Assembly (NCBI GenBank): GCA_934148875.1
Contig: CAKPDJ010000001.1
Coordinates: 5,840-69,839 of the forward strand
Source: an uncultured Bacilli bacterium
GTDB taxonomy: Bacteria; Bacillota_I; Bacilli_A; RF39; UBA660
Direction: 5' to 3'
DNA: 64,000 nucleotides
In this document: one piece after another, positions 32,210-53,497 of the stretch
How positions within the stretch are numbered: the stretch's first letter is position 1
How the letters are laid out: every line of letters begins with the position of its first letter
Made by a program: the position numbers and the translations under genes
The notes under the pieces: model-generated
The model's database searches: none
Seen by the model: the letters and a program-made list of their open reading frames with translations, nothing else
Told to the model about the DNA's origin: nothing

Positions 32210-32296
32210 TCCTTATTTATTATACATTTTGATAGTAATTGATAGTAACATAATTTTATTTTCTAGTAAATAGCTTTAAGATTTATTATTAAAATT

Positions 32297-32310
32297 ATTT
32301 CCCGGGAAAT
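32297..32310. promoter_or_regulatory. Noc-binding site (NBS), perfect consensus
   Basis: ATTTCCCGGGAAAT sits inside the 24-bp perfect palindrome 32292-32315 (AAATTATTTCCCGGGAAATAATTT), in the mnmE–small ORF intergenic region. Confidence 0.7.
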
Positions 32311-32363
32311 AATTTTTGAAGTTTAATTATGTTTTTTGTGTTTATATTACACTTTTTATAACT

Positions 32364-33719
32364 TTATTTACCTAAACAAAACTGACTAAACAGTTGGTCG
32401 ATTAATTCTTCGGTATAAGTTTCACCTATTATTTCACCAAGCTTTTCCCAAGCACGCTTAATATCAATTTCTATCATATCAACTGGTACTTCATTTTCTA
32501 TTCCTTTATCAACTTCTTCTAATATACTATTAGCTTCTTTTGCTAGTGAAATTTGTCTTACATTACTTAGATATGTGTAATCTTGCTGTTCTAATTCATT
32601 CAAATTAAATAATTCTACTATTTTTTCTTTTAAGGAATTTATACCGTTTAAATCAATTGTATTTGTATAAACAATATTTTTGTATTTAATATCATCTAAA
32701 TTTATTTTTCTTTCTAAATCACTTTTATTAATAACTACAATTACCTTTTTATCTTTACAAGAAGCTAATATCTTTTTATCTTCTTCTGATAATTTTTCAT
32801 TATTATTTAAAACAATAATAATTAAGTCAGCTTCATTAATTAAACTTAAACTCTTTTCAACACCTATTTTTTCTACAATATCCTCTGTCTCACGGATACC
32901 AGCTGTATCAATAATATTTAAAGATACTCCATTAATCGTTATTGAACCTTCAACAGTATCACGAGTTGTTCCTTCAATATCGGTAACGATAGCTTTTTCC
33001 TCATCTAATAATCTATTTAAAATACTACTCTTTCCTACATTTGGTTTTCCAATAATAATAGTTTTAATACCACTAGTTAAAATTTTACCATTTTCAGATT
33101 CATTAATTATCTTAGCTAACTTTTCTTTTATTTCAGTAATCTTTGGTTTTACTATATCATTAGTCATTACAATTGCATCTTCATATTCTGGATAGTCAAT
33201 ATTTACTTCAATTGAAGCTAATAGTTCTAGTATTTCTTGTCTTAAATTTCTAATAATATTACTAACATAACCATTTAATCCTTTAATTGCAACCTTTCTT
33301 TTAGTTTCATTCTTAGAATTTATTAAATCCATTACTGATTCAGCTTGAGTTAAGTCAATTCTACCATTTAAAAAAGCACGTTTAGTAAATTCACCAGGCT
33401 CAGCTAATCTTGCACCATTATTTAATACCAGTTCTAATACTTTATTTGTAGTAGAAATACCACCATGGCAATTAATTTCGACTATATCTTCGGTAGTGAA
33501 GGTTTTAGGAGATTTCATAACTGATACTAATACTTCATCAATTATTTCATCTTTATCTATAATATGTCCATAATTAATTGTATGTGTATCTACTGTTTCT
33601 AAATTTTTACCTTTAAATATATTATTTACTATTTTTATAGCATCGTTTCCACTTACTCTAATAATAGAAATAGCACCTACTCCTAAAGTAGTTGAAACAG
33701 CGGCAATCGTATCATTCAT
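32364..33719 (-). CDS. mnmE: tRNA modification GTPase MnmE
   Basis: G-domain (GKPNVGKSSILN; DTAGIRE), a C-terminal CxGK motif (FCLGK) and a 5-formyl-THF-binding N-terminal domain. Confidence 0.95.
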   Translation of the reverse strand: MNDTIAAVSTTLGVGAISIIRVSGNDAIKIVNNIFKGKNLETVDTHTINYGHIIDKDEIIDEVLVSVMKSPKTFTTEDIVEINCHGGISTTNKVLELVLNNGARLAEPGEFTKRAFLNGRIDLTQAESVMDLINSKNETKRKVAIKGLNGYVSNIIRNLRQEILELLASIEVNIDYPEYEDAIVMTNDIVKPKITEIKEKLAKIINESENGKILTSGIKTIIIGKPNVGKSSILNRLLDEEKAIVTDIEGTTRDTVEGSITINGVSLNIIDTAGIRETEDIVEKIGVEKSLSLINEADLIIIVLNNNEKLSEEDKKILASCKDKKVIVVINKSDLERKINLDDIKYKNIVYTNTIDLNGINSLKEKIVELFNLNELEQQDYTYLSNVRQISLAKEANSILEEVDKGIENEVPVDMIEIDIKRAWEKLGEIIGETYTEELIDQLFSQFCLGK

Positions 33720-33777
33720 AGTAACACCTCTTCTATATGCAATATACTATCATTCTTTTAATAAAAAGAAAAGAAGA

Positions 33778-34392
33778 TTATTCATCTTCCTTTGGTTTAA
33801 TTACTACATAACGATTAGGTTCTTCGCCTTCACTTTCTGTAGTTACATTTTTATTATCTGCTAGAATAGTATGAATAATTCTTCTTTCATAAGAGTTCAT
33901 TGGATCAAGTTTTGCAGCTACTTTTGACGAAGCTACTTCTCTAGCTGTTCTCTTTGCTAAAGATTCTAGTTTATGTTCACGAGCTAATTTATATTCACCA
34001 ATATCTAAATTAAATGGAAAATATTCACCTATTTCATTATATAAAGTTTGTTTTAATACTAAATTTAAGGATGTTAATGTTCTACCATTTTTTCCAATTA
34101 AAATAGAATTATTATCAGAAATAACTGTTATATTTACTCCATTATCGCGTTTTTTTACTTCTAAATTGCAAGTAAGACCCATGTTAGTAATCAATTCTTT
34201 TAAGTATTCTTTAATATATTCAATTACATCATCATGTCTAATTACTTCTATTTCTACCTTTTTATTAAATAAACCATTTTTTACTTCTACTTCCTTAATA
34301 TATAGGTCTTTTTCTAATTCTTGGAGTGCTACTTTAGCATTATTTATTGCTTCTTCTTTAGTTTTTCCACTATATCTATTTTTTACTAACAT
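33778..34392 (-). CDS. jag: Jag/KhpB RNA-binding protein (KH + R3H domains)
   Basis: 204 aa protein downstream of yidC, with a KH-like and a C-terminal R3H region (YERRIIHTILADNKNVTTESEGEEPNRYVVI). Confidence 0.85.
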   Translation of the reverse strand: MLVKNRYSGKTKEEAINNAKVALQELEKDLYIKEVEVKNGLFNKKVEIEVIRHDDVIEYIKEYLKELITNMGLTCNLEVKKRDNGVNITVISDNNSILIGKNGRTLTSLNLVLKQTLYNEIGEYFPFNLDIGEYKLAREHKLESLAKRTAREVASSKVAAKLDPMNSYERRIIHTILADNKNVTTESEGEEPNRYVVIKPKEDE

Positions 34393-35312
34393 ACTTCTTT
34401 ACTCCTTTTTACAATTAAATTTTGAACTACAGTAAATAAGTTGGTTGTTATCCAATAAATACATAATGCTGCTGGCATAAAGAAGCCCATTACTATAATC
34501 ATGATAGTCATAGTTGTTGACATATTTTTCATTGGACTACTACTAGATTCAGCTGTTGTTTTATTAAGATTAAATGAGAAATATGTAGTTACACCAACTA
34601 ATAAAATTAAAATGATATATAACCAATTTCCTTGACTTAATAAACCAACTGAAGGTGTTGTACCTAATTGTAAGCCTAAAAAGTTTTCCTCAAATAATGC
34701 TGGTACACGATTAATTGCCTCTAAAAATGCTATAAATAATGGTAATTGGATAAATCCATATAGACATCCTGATATAGGATTTATATTATATTTCTTATAA
34801 AGCATAGTCATTTCTTGACTTTTCTTCATAATTGATTCTTGATCTGTTTTATTAGCATACTTCTTTTCTAACTTTTCTAATTCTGGTTGAGCCTTTTTTA
34901 ATAATTCTGATTGCATTGCTGTTTTTTTAGTTACAGGGTATGCAATCAATCTAATGATGATACTTGTAATTATTAAAGCTAAGGCAGCACTTTTTACGTA
35001 TTTAGCAAACCATAATATTACAAATGCTAATGGTTTAACAAATATACTATCCCATAATCCTTCATAACCACCACTATTAATTTTAAATTCACTACATTTA
35101 GGATATTTTGATAAATCTACACCATTATCTTCATATGCCTTAATAGTTTTTTCATTTTCTGGTTGACAAAAAATATTTTCAGTTAAACTCTGCCCTGTCT
35201 CTGGATTCGTAACAACTTTTTTATCACTACCCTTTAATGTTTTTGTACATCCTGTTGTTAATAATAGTAATAAGGCTACTAATATTATTACTTTCTTATT
35301 ATTTTTATTCAT
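34386..35312 (-). CDS. yidC: Membrane protein insertase YidC/SpoIIIJ (lipoprotein type)
   Basis: Lipobox (LLLLTTGCTK) and a 60-kDa inner-membrane insertase core. GGAG RBS. Confidence 0.9.
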   Translation of the reverse strand: MNKNNKKVIILVALLLLLTTGCTKTLKGSDKKVVTNPETGQSLTENIFCQPENEKTIKAYEDNGVDLSKYPKCSEFKINSGGYEGLWDSIFVKPLAFVILWFAKYVKSAALALIITSIIIRLIAYPVTKKTAMQSELLKKAQPELEKLEKKYANKTDQESIMKKSQEMTMLYKKYNINPISGCLYGFIQLPLFIAFLEAINRVPALFEENFLGLQLGTTPSVGLLSQGNWLYIILILLVGVTTYFSFNLNKTTAESSSSPMKNMSTTMTIMIIVMGFFMPAALCIYWITTNLFTVVQNLIVKRSKEVC

Positions 35313-35322
35313 TTAAATCTCC

Positions 35323-35652
35323 TTATCTTATCTTTTTCATTATTTCTATGAAGCTATTTTCTAGTTCTTGATAATTTTCCTCTAAACAACTTCTCTTCAT
35401 TATTATAATATAATCTCGATCTTTTTGATAGATATTTTTGTTATTATCAATGATACTTTTTAACATTCTTTTTAATTTATTTCTAATTACTGCTTTATTT
35501 GATATTTTTTTACCTACTGAAAGACCAAAACGATAATATTCTGACATTTTAGGAGCTGTGTATATAATATAGTAATTATTTTTAAGTAATCTGCCATTAT
35601 GCATGATATATTCAAAATCTTGTGTTTTTTTTATGATATTTATTTTTTTCAT
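35323..35652 (-). CDS. rnpA: RNase P protein component
   Basis: RnpA motif (KKISNKAVIRNKLKRMLK). The ATG at 35650-52 has a GGTGA RBS and is preferred over the track start at 35697. Confidence 0.85.
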   Translation of the reverse strand: MKKINIIKKTQDFEYIMHNGRLLKNNYYIIYTAPKMSEYYRFGLSVGKKISNKAVIRNKLKRMLKSIIDNNKNIYQKDRDYIIIMKRSCLEENYQELENSFIEIMKKIR

Positions 35653-35711
35653 ATCATCACCTATTCTATTCTTATTAAAAAGCAAAAAAAACCACATAAT
35701 TGTGGCATTTT

Positions 35712-35834
35712 TTATTTAGATAATCTTTTACGACCTTTTGCTCTTCTTTTCTTTAATACGTTACCTTTAACTCTTGAAAAAAATCCATGTGCTTTTTTCA
35801 TCTTACGATTATTTGGTTGATAAGTTCTTTTCAT
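35712..35834 (-). CDS. rpmH: 50S ribosomal protein L34
   Basis: Manual translation gives [40 protein letters not shown]. The gene is below the ORF-track size cut-off. Confidence 0.9.
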
Positions 35835-35938
35835 AGTTTCCACCTCCAGACATAAAATCTACATTATTATAATAATAAATATTTGGTTTTGTCAATTATT
35901 TCCTTAAAAAATATTAATTTTAAGCATTTCTAATAAAT

Positions 35939-36115
35939 TTTTCCACACTTTCCACAATCTTGTTTATAACTTTATCAACCCTGTGATTATTTATTTTTTT
36001 ATTTTTGTGGAAAAGTGTGATATATTCAATATATATAAGGGTTATAATTGTGGAAAAAATTGTTGATAAGTTGTGAATAAAAAAAAAGATAAATTTTACT
36101 ATTTATTTTTCCACA
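35939..36115. promoter_or_regulatory. oriC upstream DnaA-box cluster (incA-like part of bipartite origin)
   Basis: At least five DnaA-box matches in both orientations: TTTTCCACA at 35939-47, 35948-56 and 36107-15, its reverse complement TGTGGAAAA at 36006-14 and 36049-57, and TGTTGATAA at 36061-69. Confidence 0.8.
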
Positions 36116-36176
36116 ATTTTAAGTTAGAATAAGACTTGCAATTTGAAATTATCTTTAGTCAGGGGGGATAATAATA

Positions 36177-37586
36177 ATGAATACAAAAATTATTTGGGCT
36201 AATTTTTTAAACGTTATTAAAAATGAATTAAATCCCTTGTCTTTTGAAACTTGGTTTAAAAATACAGAATTATATGAATATAAAGATGGAGTATGTAAGA
36301 TAATAGTTCCAATGGCTATGTATAAAAAGCACTTAGCTACTAAATATTATGAATTAATAGTAGATAATCTTAATAATGTTGTAGGAGATAATGTTGATAT
36401 TGAATTTTATACTAAAGAAGAAATTGATGAACAAGAAAATGAAGACATTGGTAATAATAATATAAATCCTATGTATATCCACAATAATGTTGATAACGTT
36501 ACAGAAAATGTAAGTAATAATAATGTTATTAACAATTTCTGTTCAAATCTTAATAAAAATTATACTTTTGAAAATTTTATAGTAGGGAATACAAATAAAT
36601 TTGCACAAGCTGCAGCATTAGAAGTTGCTGAAAATCCTGGTGTTTTATATAATCCTTTATTTATATATGGAAATAGTGGTCTAGGTAAAACACATTTGAT
36701 GCATGCAATTGGTAATTATATAACTGAACATTCTAATAAAAAGGTTTTATATGTATCAAGTGATCAATTCATTACAGATTTCTTAGGTATAAATAAAAAA
36801 GATGAGCACGGTAAAAACTTTGACTACGTTAGTTATTTTAAAAATAAATATAGAAGTATTGATGTATTAATAGTAGATGATATTCAGTTTTTTCAAGGTG
36901 CGCCGCAAACACAAAATGAATTTTTTAATACATTTACTAAGCTTTATGATGAAAATAAGCAAATAATTATTTCATCAGACCGTTCACCGGATGATTTAAA
37001 ATTACTTGAAGATAGGTTAAGAACTAGATTTTGTTGGGGATTAACGGCAGATATATTTCCACCAGATTTTGATTTAAGAGTAGCTATTATTAAGAAGAAG
37101 ATAATAGGGGAGTCATTAAACAAAAATATACCAGATGATGTGATTGAATATATTGCTTCTAATGTTGGTAGTGATGTTAGACATCTTGAAGGTTCTATTA
37201 CTAGATTGTTGGCATATTCAACTATTATGGGTGGTGCTGAAATAACATTAGATCTAGCAGTAGATGTATTAAAAGATTTTGTAAATAAAGGATACAGTGA
37301 AAAAAACAGTGTTAATAGAATACAAAGAATTGTTGCTGAATATTTTCAGGTATCAGTTGAAGATATGAAATCTAAAAAGAGAAGTGCTAATTTAGCATTT
37401 CCAAGACAAGTAGCAATGTATTTATGCAGGAAACTAACAAATGAATCATTTCCTAAGATAGGAATTGAATTTGGTGGTAAAGATCATTCAACAGTTATGC
37501 ATTCCGTGGAAAAAATAGAAAATGAAATATCAACTAATAAAGAATTAGCTAATATTATAGAAAAATTAAAGAAAGAAATAGTATAG
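36177..37586 (+). CDS. dnaA: Chromosomal replication initiator DnaA
   Basis: AAA+ Walker A (GNSGLGKTHLMHAIGN), C-terminal DNA-binding domain IV and an AGGGGG RBS. Confidence 0.97.
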   Translation: MNTKIIWANFLNVIKNELNPLSFETWFKNTELYEYKDGVCKIIVPMAMYKKHLATKYYELIVDNLNNVVGDNVDIEFYTKEEIDEQENEDIGNNNINPMYIHNNVDNVTENVSNNNVINNFCSNLNKNYTFENFIVGNTNKFAQAAALEVAENPGVLYNPLFIYGNSGLGKTHLMHAIGNYITEHSNKKVLYVSSDQFITDFLGINKKDEHGKNFDYVSYFKNKYRSIDVLIVDDIQFFQGAPQTQNEFFNTFTKLYDENKQIIISSDRSPDDLKLLEDRLRTRFCWGLTADIFPPDFDLRVAIIKKKIIGESLNKNIPDDVIEYIASNVGSDVRHLEGSITRLLAYSTIMGGAEITLDLAVDVLKDFVNKGYSEKNSVNRIQRIVAEYFQVSVEDMKSKKRSANLAFPRQVAMYLCRKLTNESFPKIGIEFGGKDHSTVMHSVEKIENEISTNKELANIIEKLKKEIV

Positions 37587-37588
37587 TG

Positions 37589-37686
37589 TGGATAAAATGT
37601 AAAAATAAAACTTTTTTTCCACAGGTAAAATTTTGAAAAAATATGATAAAATAAGGTTGAATGACAGTTATACACAGTTTCCACAG
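37589..37686. promoter_or_regulatory. oriC dnaA–dnaN intergenic DnaA boxes plus AT-rich unwinding region
   Basis: TGTGGATAA (perfect TTATCCACA on the reverse strand) at ~37589-97, TTTTCCACAG at ~37611-20 and GTTTCCACAG at ~37678-86, followed by an (AATAAT)n AT-rich tract. Confidence 0.75.
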
Positions 37687-37725
37687 TAATAATAATAATA
37701 ACTAATTAAGAAAGAAGGAATATAT

Positions 37726-38847: not shown

Positions 38848-38851
38848 GATT

Positions 38852-38968: not shown

Positions 38969-39421
38969 ATGAAAGAATATGAAGTAAATGATGAAACAAT
39001 GGCTATATTAGGAGTTGATGATAATAACTCAAAGGTTTATGAAAATAATAAGGAATATAAAATAGCTAGTAGTAGTTATGAAGTAATGGATTATTCATGT
39101 CAGTATTTTGGTAGTTCTTATTCAGGTAGAGTAGATGGTAGTAAAAGAATATTAGGAGCAAACTATAAATTACCAATTATAGTAGAAGAAAGTTCAGAAA
39201 TGATTTTTTTTCCTATTACTTCACCTGAAAAAAGTGATTGTATATGGATAGCATTAAAATGGTATAAGAGTGTTGAACAAGTGGGTAATACAACATATAT
39301 AATTCTTAAAAATGGCAAGAAAATAAAGACAATTATGTCAAAAAAATCAATAGAAAATCAAGTTATGAGAGCTTCTAGACTTAATTTAATTTTAAATGAG
39401 AGAAAATTAACTAAAATATAG
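38969..39421 (+). CDS. ComK-family competence transcription factor homologue
   Basis: The conserved ComK blocks are present: YEVN…TMAIL, SCQYFGSSYSGR, LPIIVEE, MIFFPITSP, DCIWIAL and ENQV. GGGGG RBS. Confidence 0.7.
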   Translation: MKEYEVNDETMAILGVDDNNSKVYENNKEYKIASSSYEVMDYSCQYFGSSYSGRVDGSKRILGANYKLPIIVEESSEMIFFPITSPEKSDCIWIALKWYKSVEQVGNTTYIILKNGKKIKTIMSKKSIENQVMRASRLNLILNERKLTKI

Positions 39422-40663: not shown

Positions 40664-40665
40664 AG

Positions 40666-42603: not shown

Positions 42604-42614
42604 GGAGGCGTAGT

Positions 42615-45254
42615 ATGGATAATAAAGATGATTTAAATGAATTATTAGCTAGAGCTAGTGAAGAAGATAATAATGCTGATAATGTTGTGGATGATAGTTC
42701 TGATATTAATGATAATAGTTCTCAAGAAGATATTGATATAATTAAATCTAATGGTAATTTTAGTGGATATTTTCATGAAAGAGATAGATTGGATCATAAT
42801 AACATTGTAGATGAAGTTAAAACTTCTTTTATGGAGTATTCAATGAGTGTTATTAAGTCTCGTGCATTACCTGACCTTAGAGATGGTTTAAAGCCTGTTC
42901 ACAGACGTATTTTATGGTCTATGTATGAATCTGGTTATACACCTGATAAACCTCACAGAAAGAGTGCTAAAACAGTCGGAGAAGTTATGGGTAATTATCA
43001 TCCACATGGAGATAGTTCTATTTATGAAGCAATGGTGCGTTTAGCACAAGATTTTAACCAAAGATATATGTTAATTGATGGCCATGGCAATTTTGGTAAT
43101 ATTGAGGGAGATGGCGCAGCAGCAATGCGTTATACTGAGTCAAGACTTGCTAAGATTTCATTGGAATTATTAAGGGATATAAATAAAGATACTGTTGATA
43201 TGGATGACAACTTTGATGCTACAAGAAAAGAACCTAAGGTATTACCTTCTAGATTTCCTAATGTACTTGTTAATGGATCTATGGGTATTGCAGTTGGTAT
43301 GGCTACTAATATTCCACCACATAATTTAGGTGAAGTTATAGATGGTTGTGTTGCATATATTGACAATCCAGATATTGATACTATGGGATTGATGCAGTAT
43401 ATTAAAGGACCAGATTTTCCTACAGGTGGTATTATTTTAGGTAATTCTGGTATTAAAAAGGCTTATGAAACGGGTAGAGGTTCTATTACTATTCGTAGTA
43501 AGGCTACTATTGAAGAAAATGGTAATCATAATCAGATAGTTATTACTGAGGTTCCTTATGGTGTTAATACTATGGAACTTAAAAATAAAGTTGCCGAACT
43601 TGTTCATAATAAAACTATTGAAGGTATTTCTGATTATCATACTGATTTAAAAGACGGTATTAAAATTACTATTACTTTAAAGAAGGATGCTAATGCACAA
43701 GTTATTTTGAATCAGTTATATAAACATACTAATTTTCAAATATCTTATGGTATTATTTTCTTGGTTCTTGATGGACAAACACCTAGAACTTTAGGTATAA
43801 AGGATATTATTTCTAAATATATAGACCATCAAAAAGAAGTAATTATAAGAAGAACTCGTTACGATTTAGGAAAAGCAGAAGAAAGAGTTCATATTTTAGA
43901 GGGATTACGTATAGCGCTTGATAATATTGATGAGGTTGTACATATTATTAGAGCTGCTGAAAGTGATGATGAGGCAAGAAATAATTTGATGTCCAGATTT
44001 GCTTTGGATGATATTCAAGCTAATAGTATTCTAGAAATGAGATTACGTCGTTTAACTGGATTAGAACGTGGAAAAGTTGAAGCTGAGTTAAATGATTTAC
44101 TTGTTAAGATAGCTGATTATAAGGACATTTTAGCTAATGGACAAAGAGTTCTAGATATTATTAAGGAAGAAATGTTGGAAATTAAACGTAAGTATAGTGA
44201 TGATCGTAGGACTCAAATTGATATGACAGCAATTGAATATATTGAAGATGAATCATTAATACCTGTGAATAACATATTAATTACATTAACTAATAAAGGT
44301 TATATTAAGAGAATGCCAGTTGATGCTTATCGTACACAAAATCGTGGTGGAGTTGGAATTAAAGGTATGTCTACTAATGAAGAAGATTTTGTGGAAAAGA
44401 TGATTAATATGGAAACTCATGATTATATCTTCTTCTTTAGTAATAAAGGTAAGGTATATAGGATCAAAGGTTATGAGGTTCCAGAATTTAGCAGACAAAG
44501 TAAAGGACTGCCAATAGTTAATTTATTACCTGTGGAAAAAGGTGAAAGTATTAATTCTATTGTTTCATTGAGTGCTAAAGAACATGAATATAATTACTTT
44601 GTATTTGTTACTAAAAACGGTATTGTTAAACGTACTGATTTAAGTGAATTTGATAATATACGTAGTAGTGGAAAAATAGCAATTACATTAAGAGATGATG
44701 ATGAACTTATTGCTGTACGTAAAACTACTGGGGAAAACGAAGTTATTATTGGTGCTTCTAATGGTAGAATGGTAAGATTTGTGGAAAACGAAATTCGTGT
44801 AATGGGTCGTACTGCTGCTGGTGTTAAGGGAATTGAATTAGGTGATAGTAAAGTTATCGGTGGTGAAATTATTACATCTGATGAACAGGTATTGATAGTT
44901 ACTGAAAAAGGTTATGGTAAAAAAACTCCAATTGATGAATATCGTTTAACTCATCGTGGAAGTAAGGGTGTTAAAGCACTTAACGTAACTGAGAAGAATG
45001 GAATGTTAGTATCATTGAAAGCAGTAACCGGAGAAGAAGACTTAGTTATTATTACAGATAGTGGAATAGTAATGAGAATGTCTATGGATCAAATATCTAC
45101 TTTAGGTAGAGCTACTCAAGGTGTACGTTTAATTAAACTAAAAGATGATCAAAAGGTGGCTACTGTATCAACTATAATAAAAGATGAAACGGATAATGGT
45201 TCAGAAGTTGATAACAGTGAGGTTGTTGAAAATAATGAAAGTGTATCTGAATAG
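42615..45254 (+). CDS. gyrA: DNA gyrase subunit A
   Basis: Active-site region (AAAMRYTE), GyrA-box β-pinwheel repeats and an acidic C-terminal tail. Confidence 0.97.
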   Translation: MDNKDDLNELLARASEEDNNADNVVDDSSDINDNSSQEDIDIIKSNGNFSGYFHERDRLDHNNIVDEVKTSFMEYSMSVIKSRALPDLRDGLKPVHRRILWSMYESGYTPDKPHRKSAKTVGEVMGNYHPHGDSSIYEAMVRLAQDFNQRYMLIDGHGNFGNIEGDGAAAMRYTESRLAKISLELLRDINKDTVDMDDNFDATRKEPKVLPSRFPNVLVNGSMGIAVGMATNIPPHNLGEVIDGCVAYIDNPDIDTMGLMQYIKGPDFPTGGIILGNSGIKKAYETGRGSITIRSKATIEENGNHNQIVITEVPYGVNTMELKNKVAELVHNKTIEGISDYHTDLKDGIKITITLKKDANAQVILNQLYKHTNFQISYGIIFLVLDGQTPRTLGIKDIISKYIDHQKEVIIRRTRYDLGKAEERVHILEGLRIALDNIDEVVHIIRAAESDDEARNNLMSRFALDDIQANSILEMRLRRLTGLERGKVEAELNDLLVKIADYKDILANGQRVLDIIKEEMLEIKRKYSDDRRTQIDMTAIEYIEDESLIPVNNILITLTNKGYIKRMPVDAYRTQNRGGVGIKGMSTNEEDFVEKMINMETHDYIFFFSNKGKVYRIKGYEVPEFSRQSKGLPIVNLLPVEKGESINSIVSLSAKEHEYNYFVFVTKNGIVKRTDLSEFDNIRSSGKIAITLRDDDELIAVRKTTGENEVIIGASNGRMVRFVENEIRVMGRTAAGVKGIELGDSKVIGGEIITSDEQVLIVTEKGYGKKTPIDEYRLTHRGSKGVKALNVTEKNGMLVSLKAVTGEEDLVIITDSGIVMRMSMDQISTLGRATQGVRLIKLKDDQKVATVSTIIKDETDNGSEVDNSEVVENNESVSE

Positions 45255-45265
45255 ATACACTTTTT
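45241..45265 (+). terminator. Hairpin overlapping the gyrA stop codon
   Basis: gtgtatct-gaat-agatacac is a perfect 8-bp stem followed by TTTTT. Confidence 0.55.
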
Positions 45266-45299
45266 AGTTTCACGTGAAACTACTAATTATTTATATTTG

Positions 45300-45339
45300 T
45301 ATAGTTTTCAATTTACTATGTTGAAAACTATATTTTTTT
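45300..45339 (+). terminator. Second terminator-like hairpin after gyrA
   Basis: tatagttttcaa-tttactatg-ttgaaaactata is a perfect 12-bp inverted repeat followed by T7. Confidence 0.55.
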
Positions 45340-45347
45340 ATTAAATT

Positions 45348-45361
45348 ATTTCCCGGGAAAT
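45348..45361. promoter_or_regulatory. Noc-binding site (NBS), perfect consensus
   Basis: ATTTCCCGGGAAAT within the 24-bp palindrome 45343-45366. It lies 12 bp upstream of the first full parS site. Confidence 0.7.
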
Positions 45362-46768
45362 AATTTTCCACAATGTTTCACGTGAAACATTAAACAAGTA
45401 TTTGATTATAGTTATTAAAATTGAAAAATTTTAAATATTAAATTGTATACTGTTAATAAGTAAAATTTTATCAAAATTAAATAGTATTAAGTTTATTGTT
45501 AATAATTATTTAGTTACAATATGTTTAAAAATAATATTTATTATTGTTAGGTTTAGTAATCAATAATTTAATAGATTATTATTTTATGTTTATATTTGTA
45601 TTAGGCGATTGTTTTTTAGTTTCCACAGTGTTTCACGTGAAACATAGATTTCTAATAATATTTTTGTTCTTAAATATTTATTATAGGAGACATTATAAAA
45701 TTTATTATTTACTAAATTTAAATGCATTTGTTATTTTTATTAAAAATTACATTCTATCTAATTTAAATTTTCATAATTTCCACAATGTTTCACGTGAAAC
45801 ATTGATAATTTAATAGTTATTTTTTATTAATCAATCTACAGTTATTATATAATTTTAATTACTATAAGTAATGTTAATATAGTAAACATTATATTGTTGA
45901 TTAGTTTCAATTTTCAATGATGAGTATCATTAAATAAGGTATGTCTATAATAACATAATGAGTTATTATAGATTAACCAATATAGAATATATAATACTTG
46001 AATTTTCCACATGTTTCACGTGAAACATTGTACGAATATTAAAATATAATTTATTATTTATAATAACAATTATTACTAAAGATAAAAGGTTTATTTAATA
46101 TAATTATAGATCAAGCTTTATTGATTAATAAATATTATTGTTTATTATACTTAATAAATTTATTATTAATTGTGTTAATTTGTTTTTTATATTGAATTTA
46201 TATAAATTATAAAATATCCACAATGTTTCACGTGAAACATAGCTTATTTTGTTACATATAATATTAGATTTTTAAAATATTAGTAGTTATTTATTGTATC
46301 AAATATAATTTATAAATTAAATCTAATAAATATAGATGCTTTTTAAATTTATTAAGATGATATGTATTTTATTTATGAAATTTTAGTGTTAATTAATATA
46401 ATTTCCACATGTTTCACGTGAAACATAGATAATTTAACAGTTGTTTTTTAATTAATCTACAATTATTATATAATTTTAATTACTATAAGTAATGTTAATA
46501 TAATAAACATTATATATTGTTGATTAATTTTAAATTTTAATGATAAGTATCATTAAATAAGGTATGTCTATAATAACATAATGAGTTATTATAGATTAAC
46601 CAATATTGAATATATAATACTTGAATTTTCCACATGTTTCACGTGAAACATATGAATATATCTATTAAATAAGATAAATATCTTTAAAAATTAAAAAAAT
46701 AATGTAATGTTTCACGTGAAACATAAAAATAGTTGCTCTTTTTATAAAAATATAATATTATAATTATC

Positions 46769-46847
46769 GTGCAATAAGTATTAATGGAACCAGGTCAGGA
46801 TTGGAAGATAGCAGCCTTAACGTTCTATACTTATGTGCACTTTTTTT
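46769..46847 (+). ncRNA. ffs: Small (4.5S-type) signal recognition particle RNA
   Basis: Conserved domain IV sequence GGAACCAGGTCAGGATTGGAAGATAGCAGCC. The 5' (GTGCAATAAGTA) and 3' (TACTTATGTGCAC) ends pair, and a T7 terminator follows. TATAAT boxes lie at 46751-56 and 46759-64. Confidence 0.7.
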
Positions 46848-46858
46848 ATAGGTGAATT

Positions 46859-47308
46859 ATGAAGGATTATGAAATATTATATATGAAAGAAGCAATAAAA
46901 GAGGCAATGAAAGCTTATAATTCAGGTGAGATACCTGTTGGAGCAGTAATTGTTAAAAACGGTAATATAATTGCTAGAGCACACAATATGAAAGAAACTA
47001 AAATGTGTGCTATTAAGCATGCGGAAATTATTGCCATTGAAAGAGCATGTGCAAAACTTAATAATTGGAGATTAATTGGATGTACTATGTATGTCACAAT
47101 GTTACCTTGTCCTATGTGTGCTAGTGCTATTAATCAATCAAGAATTTGTAATATATATTATGGCACTGTACCTGATTATGCAGAAAAAGAGGCTGTGGAA
47201 AAAATATTGAATGATAAAAATTATGGGTTACCTGTTAAACTTAGTGGTTCAATTTTGGAACAAGATTGTGGAAAACTTTTAAAGCAATTTTTTGTTGAAA
47301 AACGATAA
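46859..47308 (+). CDS. tadA: tRNA-specific adenosine deaminase TadA
   Basis: CDA-fold zinc motifs HAEIIAIE and PCPMCASAI. Confidence 0.9.
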   Translation: MKDYEILYMKEAIKEAMKAYNSGEIPVGAVIVKNGNIIARAHNMKETKMCAIKHAEIIAIERACAKLNNWRLIGCTMYVTMLPCPMCASAINQSRICNIYYGTVPDYAEKEAVEKILNDKNYGLPVKLSGSILEQDCGKLLKQFFVEKR

Positions 47309-47365
47309 TTATAGTTAGAATAAATTAGTTTTAATGGTATAATATAAGTGTTTTGGAGGTGCATT

Positions 47366-49069
47366 ATGTCTTATCAAGCTTTATATAGAAAATATAGACC
47401 ATCTACTTTAGAAGATGTAATTGGCCAAGATGTTGTTATTAAAATTTTAAAAAATGCAATTATTAATAATAAAATTTGCCATGCTTATATGTTTTCAGGA
47501 CCACGTGGGATTGGAAAAACCTCTATTGCGAAAATTTTAGCTAAAACTGTTAACTGTTTAAATTTGGATAATGGTGATGCTTGTGGAAAATGTGAAAATT
47601 GTTTATCTATAAGTAATAATTCTAATCCTGATATTATAGAAATAGATGCGGCTTCTAATAATGGAGTAGATGAGATTCGCGAAATTAAAAGTAAAATTAA
47701 TTTAGTGCCTAATCAATTAAAATATAAAGTGTACATTATTGATGAGGTACATATGTTGTCTATTGGTGCATTTAATGCACTATTAAAAACTTTGGAAGAA
47801 CCACCAGAGCATGTAATTTTTATATTAGCTACAACAGATTTACATAAGGTTCCTGTAACTATCATTTCTAGATGTCAATGTCTTGAATTTCATCGTATTA
47901 GTTGTGATGATATAACAAAAAGACTTAAGTATATATCTGATAAAGAAAATATTAATATTGATGATAGTGTTTTAAAAAGAATAGCTGAATTATCAGATGG
48001 TGGTATGCGTGATGCGGTTGGTATGTTAGATAAGTTAAATGCTTATTCTAATTCAAATATCACAATGGATGATTTTGAAAAAGTAAATGGTATTGTGTCA
48101 TTATCTGAAAGAATAGAATTTTTGGATAATATTATGAATGGTAACATAGATCATGTCATTGAATTTATAGATTACATTTATGATAATGGTAAAGATTTTA
48201 TAGTATTTGTCCAAGATATGATTAATTTATGTAAAGATTTATGTATTTCGTATTATATTGAAAATGAAAAAAAATATGATATTGATTTACTATTATCTTT
48301 TTTAAAATCTTTAAATAATACTTTAAAAAATACAGAATTTTCTTCAAATATTAGAATAACATTAGAAGTTGAGTTGTTATCGTTTATTAATAATCAAATT
48401 CTTAACGATAATAATACAATTATTGATAATAATTCTCAAAAGAAAGAAAAAAATGCTGTTAATGATTTGAAAATTGATAATAATGGAATACAAAACGAAG
48501 TTATTGATAATAGTTATCAACAAATTAATAAAAAAGAGGAAAAAATTATTTCCCGGGAAATAATTAATCCACAATCTGTTGATGATTCAAGTGCTTATCA
48601 GGAAGTAGTTGATATTATTATTAACAATTGTTTTGCTAGAGCCAATAAGAAAAATAAGTTGGACTTTGAAAATAATTGGAATAAGCTTAATGATTATGCT
48701 CTTGATAATGAGTATGGTGCTGTTGCATGTTACATTTCTGATGGCATAGTGAGAGCTGTTGGTGAAAATGAGGTTATTATTTCATTTGCTTATGAATCTA
48801 TGGTTGACAGAGGAGTTAAGATAATTAATAAGATAGAAAATTTATTAGAAAAAATTTATAGTAAACATTATGATGTAGCGTTAATAACGAATGATAAATG
48901 GAACCATGAAAAAGAAATATTTATTTTGAATATGAATAATAAGGTAAAATATGAATATAAAGAATTACCTAATAATAATATAGAAAATAAACCTTCATTA
49001 AAAAGCGATAATTCAATTGCTGAAGAAGCGATTGAATTGTTTGGTGAAGATATGATATCAATAAATTAG
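47366..49069 (+). CDS. dnaX: DNA polymerase III subunit tau/gamma (DnaX)
   Basis: AAA+ clamp-loader N-terminus (YRPSTLEDVIGQD…GPRGIGKTS), a zinc module (CGKCENC) and an SRC motif (TIISRCQ). The ATG at 47366 with a GGAGGTG RBS is preferred over the track's GTG at 47348. The variable linker contains an in-frame NBS palindrome. Confidence 0.9.
   Translation: MSYQALYRKYRPSTLEDVIGQDVVIKILKNAIINNKICHAYMFSGPRGIGKTSIAKILAKTVNCLNLDNGDACGKCENCLSISNNSNPDIIEIDAASNNGVDEIREIKSKINLVPNQLKYKVYIIDEVHMLSIGAFNALLKTLEEPPEHVIFILATTDLHKVPVTIISRCQCLEFHRISCDDITKRLKYISDKENINIDDSVLKRIAELSDGGMRDAVGMLDKLNAYSNSNITMDDFEKVNGIVSLSERIEFLDNIMNGNIDHVIEFIDYIYDNGKDFIVFVQDMINLCKDLCISYYIENEKKYDIDLLLSFLKSLNNTLKNTEFSSNIRITLEVELLSFINNQILNDNNTIIDNNSQKKEKNAVNDLKIDNNGIQNEVIDNSYQQINKKEEKIISREIINPQSVDDSSAYQEVVDIIINNCFARANKKNKLDFENNWNKLNDYALDNEYGAVACYISDGIVRAVGENEVIISFAYESMVDRGVKIINKIENLLEKIYSKHYDVALITNDKWNHEKEIFILNMNNKVKYEYKELPNNNIENKPSLKSDNSIAEEAIELFGEDMISIN
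48548..48561. promoter_or_regulatory. Noc-binding site (NBS) embedded in the dnaX coding sequence
   Basis: ATTTCCCGGGAAAT within the 22-bp palindrome 48544-48565. It translates as …KIISREII… in the poorly conserved DnaX linker and is followed by TTAATCCACAAT. Confidence 0.65.
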
Positions 49070-49084
49070 AAAAGAGGAAAAAAT

Positions 49085-49384
49085 ATGAATATACAAGCAT
49101 TAATGAAACAAGCTCAATCTTTACAAAAAGATATGATGAAAACTAAGGAAGAAATTGATAATATGACTTTTACTGGTACAAGTTCTTTTGTTACTGTAGA
49201 AGTAAAGGGAACTAAAGAAGTATTAAAAGTAACTATTGATAATGAGAATATTACTTCTGATGATAAAGAACTAATAGAAGATATGTTGGTAGTTGCTTTA
49301 AATGATGCTTTTAAACAAATTGACAAAGTTACAGAACAAAAAATGGGTAAATTTAGTAGTATGATGCCTGGTGGATTATTTTAG
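49085..49384 (+). CDS. ybaB: Nucleoid-associated protein YbaB/EbfC
   Basis: 99 aa with the N-terminal MMKQAQSLQKDMMK motif and a C-terminal MPGGLF. It lies between dnaX and recR. Confidence 0.9.
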   Translation: MNIQALMKQAQSLQKDMMKTKEEIDNMTFTGTSSFVTVEVKGTKEVLKVTIDNENITSDDKELIEDMLVVALNDAFKQIDKVTEQKMGKFSSMMPGGLF

Positions 49385-49393
49385 GTGTAGATT

Positions 49394-49990
49394 ATGTATC
49401 CTAGTAGTTTAGAACAATTGATAGATTCTTTTAAATATTTACCTGGAATAGGAGAAAAAACAGCTGAGAGACTTGCTTTTGCTGTTATGGAAATGGATGA
49501 AGAAAGGGTTTCACAATTTTCTGACAGTTTGATGAAAGTTAAAGAAAATATTCATCGTTGTCCTATTTGTAATGGTTTGACTGACAAAGATAAATGTTCA
49601 ATATGTGGTGATAACCTGCGTGATAATAGTGTTTTATGTGTTGTTGAGGACCCTAAATCTGTATTCCTATTTGAAAAATTAGGTTTATATAAAGGTAAAT
49701 ATCATGTACTTAAAGGATTGATTTCTCCAATGGATGGAGTTAATCCTGAAGATATAGAATTAGAGAAGTTGATAGAAAGAGTAAAAAAAGATTCTTTTAA
49801 AGAAATTATTTTAGCATTTAAACCAAGTTTTGAAGGGGAGGCAACTTCCTTATATATTAAAAGAATTTTGGGTGATATGAATCTTTCTATTACTAAAATA
49901 GCTAGTGGTATTCCAATGGGTGCCGATATGGAATACATTGATGCTATGACTTTAGAGAGAGCCTTAATGGATCGTAAAAATGTAGAATAA
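49394..49990 (+). CDS. recR: Recombination protein RecR
   Basis: HhH N-terminus (LPGIGEKTAERLAF), a C4 zinc finger (CPICNG…CSICGD) and a Toprim domain. Confidence 0.95.
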   Translation: MYPSSLEQLIDSFKYLPGIGEKTAERLAFAVMEMDEERVSQFSDSLMKVKENIHRCPICNGLTDKDKCSICGDNLRDNSVLCVVEDPKSVFLFEKLGLYKGKYHVLKGLISPMDGVNPEDIELEKLIERVKKDSFKEIILAFKPSFEGEATSLYIKRILGDMNLSITKIASGIPMGADMEYIDAMTLERALMDRKNVE

Positions 49991-50027
49991 AAAAATTAAT
50001 GGCTCATATTTTTTATTAGGTGATACT

Positions 50028-50213
50028 ATGAAAAAAATATGGGGTTTAATTAAAAAAGTATTTTTTAGTTTTGTAATTTTATATGGCTTTAATACTATTG
50101 GTAGTAATTTTAGTTTAGTAATACCTATAAATTTTATAACAGTTTCGCTAATAACGTTTTTAGGTTTTCCCGCTTTACTATCTTTAGTTTTATTATTAGT
50201 AATAGCATTTTGA
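50028..50213 (+). CDS. Small two-TM membrane protein, possibly BofA-like
   Basis: 61 aa with two hydrophobic helices. It occupies the yaaL/bofA position after recR in Bacillus synteny. The assignment rests on position and topology only. Confidence 0.35.
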   Translation: MKKIWGLIKKVFFSFVILYGFNTIGSNFSLVIPINFITVSLITFLGFPALLSLVLLLVIAF

Positions 50214-50214
50214 G

Positions 50215-51093
50215 GTGATTTATGTGTTGGAAGTTTATAAGGACAAGCAGCCATTATTTTATGATGAAGTAAAAAATAGTATTACGAATAATAAAATAAG
50301 TCATGCTTATATGTTAGAAACAAATAATTATATTTTAAAAGATGATTTGATTTTATCTTTTATAAAAACATTATTTTGTCAAAATCATAATTTAGAACAG
50401 TCAAATTGTTTAGATTGTAATATCTGTCATTTGATAGACAATAATAGTTTATCAGATTTTAAGATTATTGAACCAGATGGAGCTTGGATAAAAAAAGATC
50501 AAATTCTTGGAATAAAAGAAGCATTTAAAACAACTTCATTTGAAAATAGACCAAGAATTTATTGGATTAAAGGAGCAGATAAACTAAATAAACAAGCAGC
50601 TAATTCATTACTTAAATTTTTAGAGGAGCCTGAGGGAAATATTATAGCTATATTAGAAGTTGATAATAGATATAAGGTTTTAGAAACTATTAGAAGCAGA
50701 TGTCAAATATATTCTTTTGTTAATCATGAAAAAAGTAAAGAAATAGAAAATATTGAATTATTGACAGAAATAATTAAAACTTTGGAAAATAAAAAAGAAA
50801 AGGCGATAGCTTATTTGCCTATCACATTAGATAATAATTATTATAATAAAGATTTTTGGAAAAGTCTTTTTCTTGACATGATTAATATTTATGAAAGTGC
50901 CATAAGAAAACAAAATAATTTGAATTTTTCTAATTATGGTGATATTTTGGAGTTAATAATTAGTAAAAATTCGATATCAGGTTTAATTAATAAAGTTAGT
51001 GTTTTATTTGAAATGGTTAATAATTTAAACTATAATTTAAACATGACGATGATGATTGATCAATTTGTTATTAAGTTTAATGGAGGTGAGTAG
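50215..51093 (+). CDS. holB: DNA polymerase III δ' subunit (HolB)
   Basis: Clamp-loader-like AAA+ module with a degenerate P-loop (SHAYMLE), a zinc module (CLDCNIC) and an SRC-like motif (TIRSRCQ). Confidence 0.8.
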   Translation: MIYVLEVYKDKQPLFYDEVKNSITNNKISHAYMLETNNYILKDDLILSFIKTLFCQNHNLEQSNCLDCNICHLIDNNSLSDFKIIEPDGAWIKKDQILGIKEAFKTTSFENRPRIYWIKGADKLNKQAANSLLKFLEEPEGNIIAILEVDNRYKVLETIRSRCQIYSFVNHEKSKEIENIELLTEIIKTLENKKEKAIAYLPITLDNNYYNKDFWKSLFLDMINIYESAIRKQNNLNFSNYGDILELIISKNSISGLINKVSVLFEMVNNLNYNLNMTMMIDQFVIKFNGGE

Positions 51094-51094
51094 A

Positions 51095-51877
51095 GTGCAT
51101 AAAATAGTGGGAGTTATTTTTAATGAAAAAGGAAAAAGTTATTTCTTTTCGTGCAATAGCTTGGAATTAAATAAGGGTGATTATGTTATTGTTGAAACTG
51201 AAAAAGGTTTACAGTATGGACAAGTTGTTGTTCAACCTTATGAAATAAATGAAGAAGATATTGGTTTCCCATTAAAAAATGTAATTCGTATTGCTACTAA
51301 AGAAGATAATAAACAATATGATAAGAATAAAAAAGATGCTTCCCAGGCATTGATTAAGTCTAGAGAATTAGTTGAAGAATTTAATTTGAATATGAGAATT
51401 ATTGATGTCAATTATACCTTTGATAGAAAACAACTTTTATTTAATTTCTTAGCTGATTCAAGAATAGATTTTAGAGAATTAGCCAAAAAGCTTGCTCAAA
51501 TTTATAAAACTCGTATTGAACTTAGACAAATTGGGGTTAGAGATAAGGCTAAAGAAATAGGTGGAATTGGTCCTTGTGGGCGTTTCTTATGTTGTAGTAC
51601 TTTTTTAACGGATTTTAATAGTGTTTCTATTAATATGGCAAAAAATCAAATGTTAGCATTAAATCCTACAAAAATAAATGGTTTATGTGGTAGACTCTTA
51701 TGTTGTTTAAATTATGAAGATGAAGTTTATACTGAAATGAAAAAAGGTATGCCTAATATTGGTCAAACTTTTAAAGACAGTGAAGTAGAAGGCAAAGTTA
51801 TATCTTTAAATTTATTAAAAAGAACTGCTACTATCGAAACTAAGAACAAATCACTAGTTGAGGTTGAAATAAAATAA
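51095..51877 (+). CDS. yaaT: PSP1-domain protein YaaT/RicT
   Basis: Strong match to B. subtilis YaaT (IGPCGRFLCCSTFL…NPTKINGLCGRLLCCLNYE). The proposed start is the GTG at 51095, 4 nt after a GGAGGTG RBS; the track start at 51056 overlaps holB. Confidence 0.8.
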   Translation: MHKIVGVIFNEKGKSYFFSCNSLELNKGDYVIVETEKGLQYGQVVVQPYEINEEDIGFPLKNVIRIATKEDNKQYDKNKKDASQALIKSRELVEEFNLNMRIIDVNYTFDRKQLLFNFLADSRIDFRELAKKLAQIYKTRIELRQIGVRDKAKEIGGIGPCGRFLCCSTFLTDFNSVSINMAKNQMLALNPTKINGLCGRLLCCLNYEDEVYTEMKKGMPNIGQTFKDSEVEGKVISLNLLKRTATIETKNKSLVEVEIK

Positions 51878-52593
51878 TGGAAGTATTACATGATTTAGTC
51901 GGATATAAAAATTTAAAAATATATCAAAATACAGATTGGTTTTTATTTTCTTTAGATTCAGTGCTACTTGCTAATTTTGTAACTCTTAATAAAAATATCA
52001 AGACTATATTTGACTTAGGTTGTGGAAATGCACCTATACCTTTAATTCTTTCAACTAAAACAGATGCACATATTGTTGGGGTTGAAATTCAAAAAGATTG
52101 CTATAAGCTGGCAAAGAAAAGCGTCATATATAATAAGCTTGATAGTCAAATTGAATTAATGAATATTGATATGAAAAACCTAAAAAATATGTATACTAGT
52201 GATAGTGTAGATGTTATTACTTGTAATCCTCCATATTTTAAATATTCTTCTACTAGTAATATTAATGAAGATGAGCATAAAGTAATAGCTAGACATGAGA
52301 AAATGATTACTTTGGATGATATATTGTCACTTGCTAGATATTTGTTAAAAAATAATGGTTGTATTGCTATGGTTCACCGTACTGATAGATTGATAGAAAT
52401 AATTAATGCTTTTCAAAAACATGGATTAGAAGTAAAAAAAATACGATTTGTATATCCTAGAATTAATTCCGAATCAAATATGGTTTTAATTGAGGGTAGA
52501 AAAAATGGTAAGGTTGGGTTAAAATTATTACCTCCACTTTATGTTCATGATAATAATAATTATACTGATGAAGTTATGACTATGTTTCAATAG
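51877..52593 (+). CDS. YabB/TrmN6-like tRNA (adenine-N6)-methyltransferase
   Basis: SAM-binding motif (IFDLGCGNAPIP) and an NPPY catalytic motif (CNPPYF). It is at the yabB position. Confidence 0.7.
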   Translation: MEVLHDLVGYKNLKIYQNTDWFLFSLDSVLLANFVTLNKNIKTIFDLGCGNAPIPLILSTKTDAHIVGVEIQKDCYKLAKKSVIYNKLDSQIELMNIDMKNLKNMYTSDSVDVITCNPPYFKYSSTSNINEDEHKVIARHEKMITLDDILSLARYLLKNNGCIAMVHRTDRLIEIINAFQKHGLEVKKIRFVYPRINSESNMVLIEGRKNGKVGLKLLPPLYVHDNNNYTDEVMTMFQ

Positions 52594-52609
52594 TAGGGAG
52601 ATGTTTATT

Positions 52610-53449
52610 ATGCGTCAAAAAAGTTATGATGATAGTCCTAGTTTATATTTAATTCCTACACCAGTTGGTAATATGGAAGATATAACACTTAGAGCTATTA
52701 ACATTTTAAAGAAAGTTGATTTTTTATTATGTGAAGATACTCGAATTACTGCAGAATTACTTAATAAATTGGATATTAAGAAAAAGTTAGTGCATTCTGA
52801 TGATCATAATGAAGATTCGTTAAAGGAAATGGTTTTATCTAAATTACAAGATGGACTTAACATAGGATTAGTTACTGATAGAGGCACCCCTATTATTAGT
52901 GATCCGGGTTATAAAATAGTAGAATATGTTACAAAAAATGGGTTTAATGTAATAAGTTTACCAGGGCCAACTGCTTTTGTACCTGCTTTAACTATGTCTG
53001 GAATTAATCCAGCACCATTTTTATTTTATGGTTTTTTAAATAGTAAAGAGTCAAAACGTATAAAAGAACTTGAATCTTTAAAAAATTTACCATATACTAT
53101 CATCTTGTATGAAGCTCCTCACAGAATTACTGATATGTTAAAATCATTATTATCAGTATTTGGTAATCGCCAAATAGCTTTATGTAGGGAAATAAGTAAG
53201 AAATACGAAGAAGCCATTCGTGGCACTATTGAAGAAGTGTTAACTGTTTCTGATACATTAAAGGGTGAAATGGTAGTAGTTGTTGAGGGTAATTTAGAAC
53301 AAGAAGATTATTCCTCACTTACTATTCTCGAACATATTAATTTATATTTAGAGGACGGCATGAGTGATAAAGAAGCTATAAAAAAAGTAGCTGTGGAAAG
53401 AGGTATTCCGAAGTCTGTTGTGTATAAGGAGTACCATATAGATAATTAA
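52610..53449 (+). CDS. rsmI: 16S rRNA (cytidine1402-2'-O)-methyltransferase RsmI
   Basis: LYLIPTPVGNMEDITLRA N-terminus typical of RsmI/YabC. The ATG at 52610 is spaced correctly from the GGGAG RBS. Confidence 0.9.
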   Translation: MRQKSYDDSPSLYLIPTPVGNMEDITLRAINILKKVDFLLCEDTRITAELLNKLDIKKKLVHSDDHNEDSLKEMVLSKLQDGLNIGLVTDRGTPIISDPGYKIVEYVTKNGFNVISLPGPTAFVPALTMSGINPAPFLFYGFLNSKESKRIKELESLKNLPYTIILYEAPHRITDMLKSLLSVFGNRQIALCREISKKYEEAIRGTIEEVLTVSDTLKGEMVVVVEGNLEQEDYSSLTILEHINLYLEDGMSDKEAIKKVAVERGIPKSVVYKEYHIDN

Positions 53450-53453
53450 AATT

Positions 53454-53467
53454 ATTTCCCGGGAAAT
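53454..53467. promoter_or_regulatory. Noc-binding site (NBS), perfect consensus
   Basis: ATTTCCCGGGAAAT within the 26-bp palindrome 53448-53473. It starts at the rsmI stop codon, upstream of pth. Confidence 0.7.
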
Positions 53468-53497
53468 AATTTTGGTCTTTTTGTTTATAATAAAGAG

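Follow-up and report, generated by a model that had tools for sequence, protein, structure and literature searches.

A 64,000-nucleotide stretch of chromosome from an uncultured Bacilli bacterium (GTDB lineage RF39, UBA660; contig CAKPDJ010000001.1 of assembly GCA_934148875.1; this whole stretch is called the window below) carries four exact copies of the Noc-binding site (NBS) around its replication origin, oriC, and encodes close by a Noc-like paralogue of the partition protein ParB. Judged by its sequence, this protein is Noc-derived, yet it fails two tested features that define Noc, the membrane-targeting helix and the curated family score. The reading we favour, to which we give a probability of roughly 0.6, is that the four palindromes are predicted loading sites for an anchorless Noc-type cytidine triphosphate (CTP) clamp, which would mark the origin domain together with ParB bound to parS. 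Noc is the textbook case of a ParB duplicate that took on a different DNA specificity along with a different job, CTP-switched, membrane-tethered nucleoid occlusion. The present lineage would offer a natural variant of Noc that has completed the DNA-specificity switch, lacks the anchor and still has its sites with parS at the origin. Such a variant makes it testable what a Noc-type clamp does without membrane binding, whether two ParB paralogues on interleaved sites cooperate or insulate each other, and whether specificity or localisation changed first in the evolution of Noc. The species is known from gut metagenomes only and carries sporulation and cell-wall genes.

Four Noc-binding sites around oriC

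An earlier note on this DNA, made from the letters alone, had reported four palindromes clustered at the origin and had judged their occurrence by chance unlikely; exact matching and reading of the sequence confirmed their coordinates. The central 14-mer, ATTTCCCGGGAAAT, has four exact matches in the window (32297-32310, 45348-45361, 48548-48561 and 53454-53467), and a search of the window tolerating up to two mismatches returned nothing beyond these. The judgement on chance also held, as 100 dinucleotide-preserving shuffles of the window gave 0.00 matches to the 14-mer, and in this DNA of ~26% G+C, where 0.33 CCCGGG hexamers would be expected, the hexamer is found only within the four sites. 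Common to all four is a 22-bp palindrome, AATTATTTCCCGGGAAATAATT, which is longer (24-26 bp) at three of them. It includes the published 16-bp NBS, TATTTCCCGGGAAATA, matched exactly at 4/4 sites, in agreement with the earlier claim that the central 14 bp equal the published site. The NBS is defined as a 16-bp palindrome that departs from parS at two places in each half-site, positions 1 and 6 (PMC7383237, PMC8429893). The sites and the origin region are listed here.

32292..32315, no strand: NBS site 1, 24-bp palindrome AAATTATTTCCCGGGAAATAATTT, extendable to 26 bp; core 14-mer at 32297-32310
45343..45366, no strand: NBS site 2, 24-bp palindrome, 89 bp 3' of the gyrA stop
48544..48565, no strand: NBS site 3, 22-bp palindrome inside dnaX (47348-49069)
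53448..53473, no strand: NBS site 4, 26-bp palindrome, between rsmI (52601-53449) and pth (53498-54067)
35939..37676, no strand: oriC region, with DnaA-box clusters at 35939-36115 and 37587-37676 on either side of dnaA (36177-37586), at the sign change of the GC skew

The GC skew of the window switches sign near 36 kb, and this, the position of dnaA and the flanking DnaA-box clusters bear out the clustering of the sites at oriC. With dnaA at 36177-37586, the four NBS range from about -3.9 to +17.3 kb relative to that gene. Sites 1, 2 and 4 are intergenic, site 1 lying downstream of mnmE (32364-33719, minus strand) and upstream of a small open reading frame (ORF) and mnmG; site 3 lies within the dnaX coding sequence. 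Metagenome contigs of the same species also contain site 1 (L001-L004 and L006) and site 4 (L247 and L248).

Relatives were sampled twice, by a GTDB scan (one genome per species, exact 22-mer), which gave at least 120 stretches of eight kb from ~115 genomes, and independently among metagenome contigs holding the 22-mer, which gave 120 stretches. In 51/51 of the relatives' sites outside the scan selection, the 14-mer has T at -1 and A at +14 and so equals the 16-bp NBS, and the A/T-tract bias around it reaches about 12 bp to either side of the centre (~24 bp). Site 3 reads as IISREII, in the variable linker that follows domain III of DnaX. The relatives have the same peptide and the same DNA at DnaX residues ~345-400, where the adjoining residues are unconserved, and the frequency of the commonest base at the dnaX site is 0.98 in the 22-mer compared with 0.49-0.53 in its flanks. 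Conservation of the dnaX site, which lies in a hypervariable linker, is limited to the DNA. Across more than 100 related species, purifying selection on the sites is strong.

The shuffles and the conservation across species ruled out that the palindromes arose by chance or as a side effect of restriction-site avoidance. A phage or plasmid source was also rejected, the 22-mer being present in only two viral contigs; the bare 14-mer was found in at least 120 IMG/VR viral contigs (L007-L126), which include those two.

Sites 1, 2 and 4 lie just 3' of genes, are flanked by runs of A and T and are foldable, as would be expected if the palindromes acted as RNA or DNA hairpins, for example as bidirectional intrinsic terminators at gene ends. 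We regard this as extremely improbable. The predicted folds are weak, with energies of -5 to -8 kcal/mol and one or two G-C pairs each, a terminator scan called none of the sites, and site 3 and dozens of the relatives' sites lie inside coding sequence, on which three grounds intrinsic terminators were ruled out. Exact conservation over 16-22 nucleotides in more than 100 species and interleaving with parS are, moreover, unexpected of terminators, and no compensatory variation was seen in the palindromes. No known RNA overlaps the sites, since an Rfam scan of the window returned only a signal recognition particle (SRP) RNA and a T-box, both off-site, and no tRNA was found in the window.

The Noc-like ParB paralogue and its missing helix

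The candidate binder is encoded on the minus strand in the gene order rsmG (29266-29964), noc-like, soj, spo0J. In B. subtilis, too, noc stands beside soj-spo0J, downstream of rsmG (gidB). Genomic proximity of noc and parB has been described in the literature (PMC7383237). The three genes are as follows.

28105..29142, minus strand: Noc-like ParB paralogue, 345 residues; CTP-binding N-terminal domain, helix-turn-helix (HTH), acidic linker, Noc-type C-terminal domain
27225..28013, minus strand: soj (ParA-type ATPase), between the noc-like gene and spo0J
26357..27247, minus strand: spo0J/parB, with R at 173 and an N-terminal extension of ~40 residues with an LGRGL-type motif, without counterpart in the Noc-like paralogue

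The best sequence matches of the paralogue in the PDB are Noc structures from Geobacillus and Bacillus (7ng0 and 7nfu at 205 bits, 7ol9 at 188 bits), and Spo0J/ParB structures follow below them at 165-177 bits; the window's Spo0J ranks the two groups in reverse order. The recognition region, GKSQAAIANKMRLLSLP...SERHAR, gives Q131, K137, S142 and R159 as the equivalents of positions 173, 179, 184 and 201, that is, Q-K-S-R. Canonical Noc has QKKR and ParB has RTAG at these positions, and an experimentally derived rule for NBS recognition demands Q173, R201 and one lysine at 179 or 184, with Q173 reading adenine 1 and R201 reading cytosine 6 (PMC7383237); the Q-K-S-R of the paralogue satisfies this rule. 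The CTP motifs are intact (GERR at 59-62, ENLQR at 93-97) and hold the residues that correspond to R89 and N121 of B. subtilis, both required for CTP binding, hydrolysis and spreading. For the C-terminal 66 residues the top family is TIGR04285, the NCBIfam model of Noc (positions 214-255, E = 1.5e-4), a weak but specific match. The Pfam domains of the paralogue are ParB_N and HTH_ParB only.

Over its full length the paralogue scores 288.5 bits against TIGR04285, and 298.5 bits once the linker is taken out artificially, against a curated cut-off of 315; this linker, between the DNA-binding and C-terminal domains, is 88 residues long, acidic and proline-rich. The start of the protein aligns with residue ~27-28 of B. 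subtilis Noc, 15 residues ahead of NRFQPR, so that both the amphipathic membrane-targeting helix and helix alpha-2 are absent. That the ORF had been called too short at its N-terminal end was ruled out by a good ribosome-binding site at the ATG, in-frame stops upstream of it and the uniform starts of the family, in which the few homologues starting MKRGYI... are upstream start-codon calls. The first 14 residues have a net charge of -4. A membrane helix elsewhere was ruled out by a hydrophobic-moment scan, which detected no cationic amphipathic segment anywhere in the paralogue, only acidic or neutral helices inside folded domains. Compared with the window's Spo0J, the paralogue begins where residue 42 aligns, lacks the N-terminal ParA-interacting peptide and has Q and R, not R173 and G201.

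Adams et al. found that an amphipathic helix at the N-terminus (residues 1-10/15) is predicted in every Noc homologue that they examined. The Noc helix is needed for membrane binding and nucleoid occlusion, and its removal abolishes Noc function in B. subtilis; the variant NocN-delta-10 retains CTP binding and clamp closure, and neither binds liposomes nor complements. Where the earlier note had identified a Noc-type ParB paralogue, the ORF, the specificity residues, the CTP motifs and the gene position are thus as expected of one, and it is the membrane helix and the NCBIfam cut-off for Noc that the protein does not share.

Homologues were collected in two sets, the 120 closest (60-100% identity) and the best 150 representatives of 50%-identity clusters. 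All of the closest (120/120) start MD(R/K)EVVELYLDDIIPNRFQPR and have Q-K-(S/T)-R. Among the 150 best representatives, 143 have NRFQPR no more than 25 residues from the start. The closest homologues, these 143 and four more divergent relatives all start 8-25 residues before NRFQPR; in the last four, read from genomic DNA, the start lies 8-15 residues before IIPNRFQPR, with a stop codon upstream. Q-K-x-R is present in 115 of the 116 representatives with a parseable recognition region, and x (position 184) is never lysine. Family lengths range from 221 to 798 residues because the linker varies. The members come from metagenome-assembled genomes (MAGs) labelled uncultured Bacilli, Tenericutes, Mycoplasma sp. 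CAG or Clostridium sp. CAG, and where they are named at all it is only as 'ParB/RepB/Spo0J family partition protein', so that a family comprising 150 or more clusters at 50% identity has gone unrecognised in databases as Noc-related. A search of open-access papers and bioRxiv turned up no account of a Noc family without the anchor, nor of arrays mixing NBS with parS.

Site distribution and shared arrays with parS

In the lineage as sampled, hardly any of the extended sites fall outside the gene block next to oriC. Homologues of origin-block genes are present on 116/120 of the GTDB stretches listed with the 22-mer and on 108/120 of the metagenome stretches, the rest of the latter being either too short to judge or the polA-fpg locus. 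Most of the exceptions that are informative are this locus, which, on contigs that show its position, is close to dnaA. In L273 and L280 the distance to dnaA is 8-9 kb, which indicates that the gene order left of oriC differs between sub-lineages, and in another case the locus shares one 71-kb contig with the tadA-mfd block. A conserved NBS is present between polA and fpg/mutM in L164, L258, L290, L307, L339, L340, L346, L273 and L280. Contigs of the species itself lengthen the window by 10 kb at either end without a further NBS, CCCGGG or parS, so that over a species-level coverage of ~84 kb NBS are found at 32.3-53.5 kb only. Canonical NBS are dispersed over half to two-thirds of the chromosome.

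Positions were counted for the 245 NBS in the GTDB stretches listed, and the window's sites 1-4 match four of the positions that recur in relatives:

gyrA-to-tadA gap: ~122 NBS, the main NBS/parS array position
inside dnaX: 33 NBS
within a methyltransferase gene (peptide NYFPGNN): 15 NBS
rsmI-pth gap: 9 NBS
jag-mnmE gap: 6 NBS
mnmE-mnmG gap: 2 NBS

In the methyltransferase gene (for example L127 7292, L139 7249, L157 629 and L168 1239) NYFPGNN stands directly before a conserved FD(I/V)I..N. The window's homologue of this gene (51877-52593) is without an NBS.

These counts bear on whether the window holds a canonical Noc/NBS system, in which membrane tethering would block division and the four sites would be the origin side of a chromosome-wide set thinning toward the terminus. 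Such a system would be in keeping with the exact NBS match, the Noc-type specificity residues, the Noc-like C-terminus and the location of the gene in the noc position beside soj and spo0J, and division control would be relevant to the organism, which is a walled spore-former with penicillin-binding proteins and DivIC. We nevertheless consider canonical nucleoid occlusion unlikely: the helix whose removal kills the function of B. subtilis Noc is missing here and family-wide, the score is under the curated Noc cut-off, and both independent samples show the sites limited to the origin region. The earlier proposal of a functional Noc/NBS system with a high density near the origin therefore stands as to the exact sites, the specificity residues and the selection, and falls short as to the helix, the Noc cut-off and a chromosome-wide spread. 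That note had also named absence of the motif from the rest of the chromosome as a result that would speak against it; the sampling points that way, which tells against nucleoid occlusion and leaves the pairing of protein and site unaffected.

Chromosomal parS sites are usually dispersed singly. In the window they form an array that begins beside NBS site 2:

45374..46723, no strand: parS array, 8 perfect parS TGTTTCACGTGAAACA in 1.35 kb with no called gene, from gyrA to the SRP RNA
45266..45281, no strand: degenerate parS with 2 mismatches, upstream of the array
45364..45372, plus strand: DnaA-box-like TTTTCCACA, between NBS site 2 and the first parS

With the degenerate copy the whole parS stretch covers 45266-46723 (~1.45 kb). 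The first perfect parS (45374-45389) is separated from NBS site 2 by 12 bp, the distance given earlier, and this gap holds the DnaA-box-like element, making an NBS-DnaA box-parS module of 42 bp (45348-45389).

Shared occupancy of this gap is common in relatives: among 43 complete gyrA-tadA gaps, parS is present in 37 (up to 10 copies), NBS in 30 (up to 9) and both in 24. Tandem units of ~126 bp that pair a single NBS with a single parS were found in L129 (a closed 1.52-Mb MAG), L179 and L238, and the NBS-parS centre spacings in relatives cluster at 22-39 bp and at 57-58 bp. The array units of L129 are without the DnaA box of the window module. Within the window's parS array a ~210-bp segment is duplicated (45820-46028 and 46441-46651, 93-96% identical, 621-623 bp apart), pointing to recent repeat amplification.

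With NBS and parS side by side, the palindromes might instead be bound by the window's ParB, through relaxed or dual specificity, or by an unrelated regulator, the Noc-like gene then being incidental. The window's ParB reads R-M-S-S at 173/179/184/201, with a serine (SMSHAR) at the equivalent of G201, a position reported to be invariant in ParB orthologues and at which laboratory dual-specificity variants mostly have T or S. Its R173 and the lack of K/R at 179 or 184, however, are the pattern of parS-specific variants in the deep mutational scan. S201 is not lineage-wide either, the ParB of the relative L192 having the usual glycine, while the NBS are conserved across the lineage. A dual-specificity ParB was set aside on these two grounds. 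The Q-K-x-R paralogue, for its part, belongs to a large family and is present in 4/4 of the relatives' loci that span the noc gene region, and altogether we judge that a different binder is very improbable.

A predicted origin-marking complex and the surrounding locus

In the origin-marking role that we favour, the paralogue, a dimer encoded 3 kb away, would read the NBS with Q131 directed to adenine 1, R159 to cytosine 6 and K137 serving as the permissive lysine, and the A/T-tract flanks would widen the preferred site to ~24 bp. It would nucleate at the NBS, close as a CTP-dependent sliding clamp and spread over adjoining DNA; closure and spreading are to be expected because the CTP-binding motifs are intact. 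Noc of S. aureus spreads over 8-10 kb per site, and at such a range oriC and ~25-30 kb around it would be covered from the four sites (32.3, 45.3, 48.5 and 53.4 kb). The outcome would be a second origin-specific ParB-type complex beside ParB-parS, and possibly the DnaA boxes, that organises, segregates or marks the origin domain. Since the protein has no membrane helix and the sites are confined to the origin, often with parS, an origin-domain complex appears the most likely role, and chromosome-wide, membrane-tethered nucleoid occlusion is less likely. Candidate outputs would include control of division by some other route, a modulating effect on ParB or SMC, and control of initiation, the last of which has been reported for S. 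aureus Noc.

A broader and more tentative claim, which we rate at somewhat less than an even chance, is that throughout this clade of uncultured gut Bacilli an anchorless Noc serves as a second CTP clamp of the origin, loaded beside ParB on shared NBS/parS arrays, either as an ancestral 'proto-Noc' or through secondary repurposing. If the first were true, NBS would have originated in copies of parS close to oriC, at a time when neither the membrane helix nor the dispersal of the sites over the chromosome had evolved; if the second, Noc would have been secondarily diverted from nucleoid occlusion.

Several points weigh against the origin-marking role. The lineage sampling used a stringent 22-mer, so that sites with other flanks would escape it, and in this organism there may be NBS more than ~40 kb from oriC. 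The protein may associate with the membrane via a partner protein or an unrecognised motif, and in small cells a Noc zone limited to the origin could still act in division-site control. Repeat amplification, and not selection for co-loading, could account for part of the interleaving in the arrays, and in the window itself parS adjoins only one of the four NBS sites.

Comparison with known systems places the protein and its sites in different company. With Noc/NBS of B. subtilis and S. aureus the system shares the identical 16-bp TATTTCCCGGGAAATA, the fold, Q173/K179/R201, GERR and ENLQR, the Noc-type C-terminal domain and the gene position beside soj-spo0J. It differs in that the protein is without the amphipathic helix and helix alpha-2, which makes it a natural counterpart of N-delta-26, and in that the family has no lysine at 184, a long, variable and acidic linker, and scores below the NCBIfam cut-off. 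Like ParB (Spo0J)/parS, it has origin-proximal palindromes within a few tens of kb of oriC, some of them in genes, with two changes from parS per half-site, and its protein is a ParB-type CTP clamp paralogue whose sites share arrays with parS; unlike ParB, this protein has Q and R in place of R173 and G201 and is without the ParA-contacting N-terminal peptide. In RacA/ram of B. subtilis and RicO/ricS of S. aureus, too, specific sites limited to an origin-proximal region mark or position the origin domain, but those proteins combine a MerR-type HTH with a coiled coil and recognise other motifs, and RicO also has a C-terminal amphipathic helix. Set beside RacA, RicO and RocS, the protein described here has a ParB/Noc fold and no detected membrane- or pole-targeting element, and the likeness lies in site distribution only. 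In this respect the sites are closer to parS, or to ram and ricS, than to canonical NBS.

Plasmid centromeres such as F sopC, P1 parS and R1 parC are also repeat arrays. The relatives' arrays resemble them in their tandem, evenly spaced partition-protein sites in a non-coding stretch, as in the 126-bp units, but are chromosomal, lie beside oriC and combine sites for two ParB paralogues.

The window has 16 exact copies of the DnaA-box variant TTTTCCACA, against a chance expectation of <1 by a rough composition estimate made by hand, with concentrations at oriC and near the parS array. Besides the two oriC clusters, a third DnaA-box cluster surrounds the parS array, within 44390-47590, and four boxes abut a parS directly (45364/45374, 46003/46012, 46214/46224 and 46626/46635). 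NBS sites 2 and 3 are alike beyond the palindrome (45343-45372 and 48544-48573, …GGGAAATAATT[TT/AA]TCCACAAT…), so that a DnaA-box-like TCCACA element follows both. The relatives' dnaX sites are without this extension.

Other features of the locus were recorded in passing. A ComK-family gene lies between dnaN and recF (38969-39421, plus strand), which is unusual in this conserved origin block, and it is kept in the relatives' loci. The small SRP RNA (46765-46846, plus strand) is located just upstream of tadA and scores above the Rfam gathering threshold, as does the T-box leader (60816-61015, plus strand) upstream of the ORF at 61034-61525; this ORF is a dUTPase in same-species gene calls, and a tRNA-synthetase gene comes next. 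Finally, contigs L138, L140, L141, L154, L155, L158, L210, L212 and others contain a low-GC Bacilli origin block and were deposited as 'uncultured Muribaculaceae' or 'Bacteroides helcogenes'; they are probably mis-binned or mislabelled MAG contigs.

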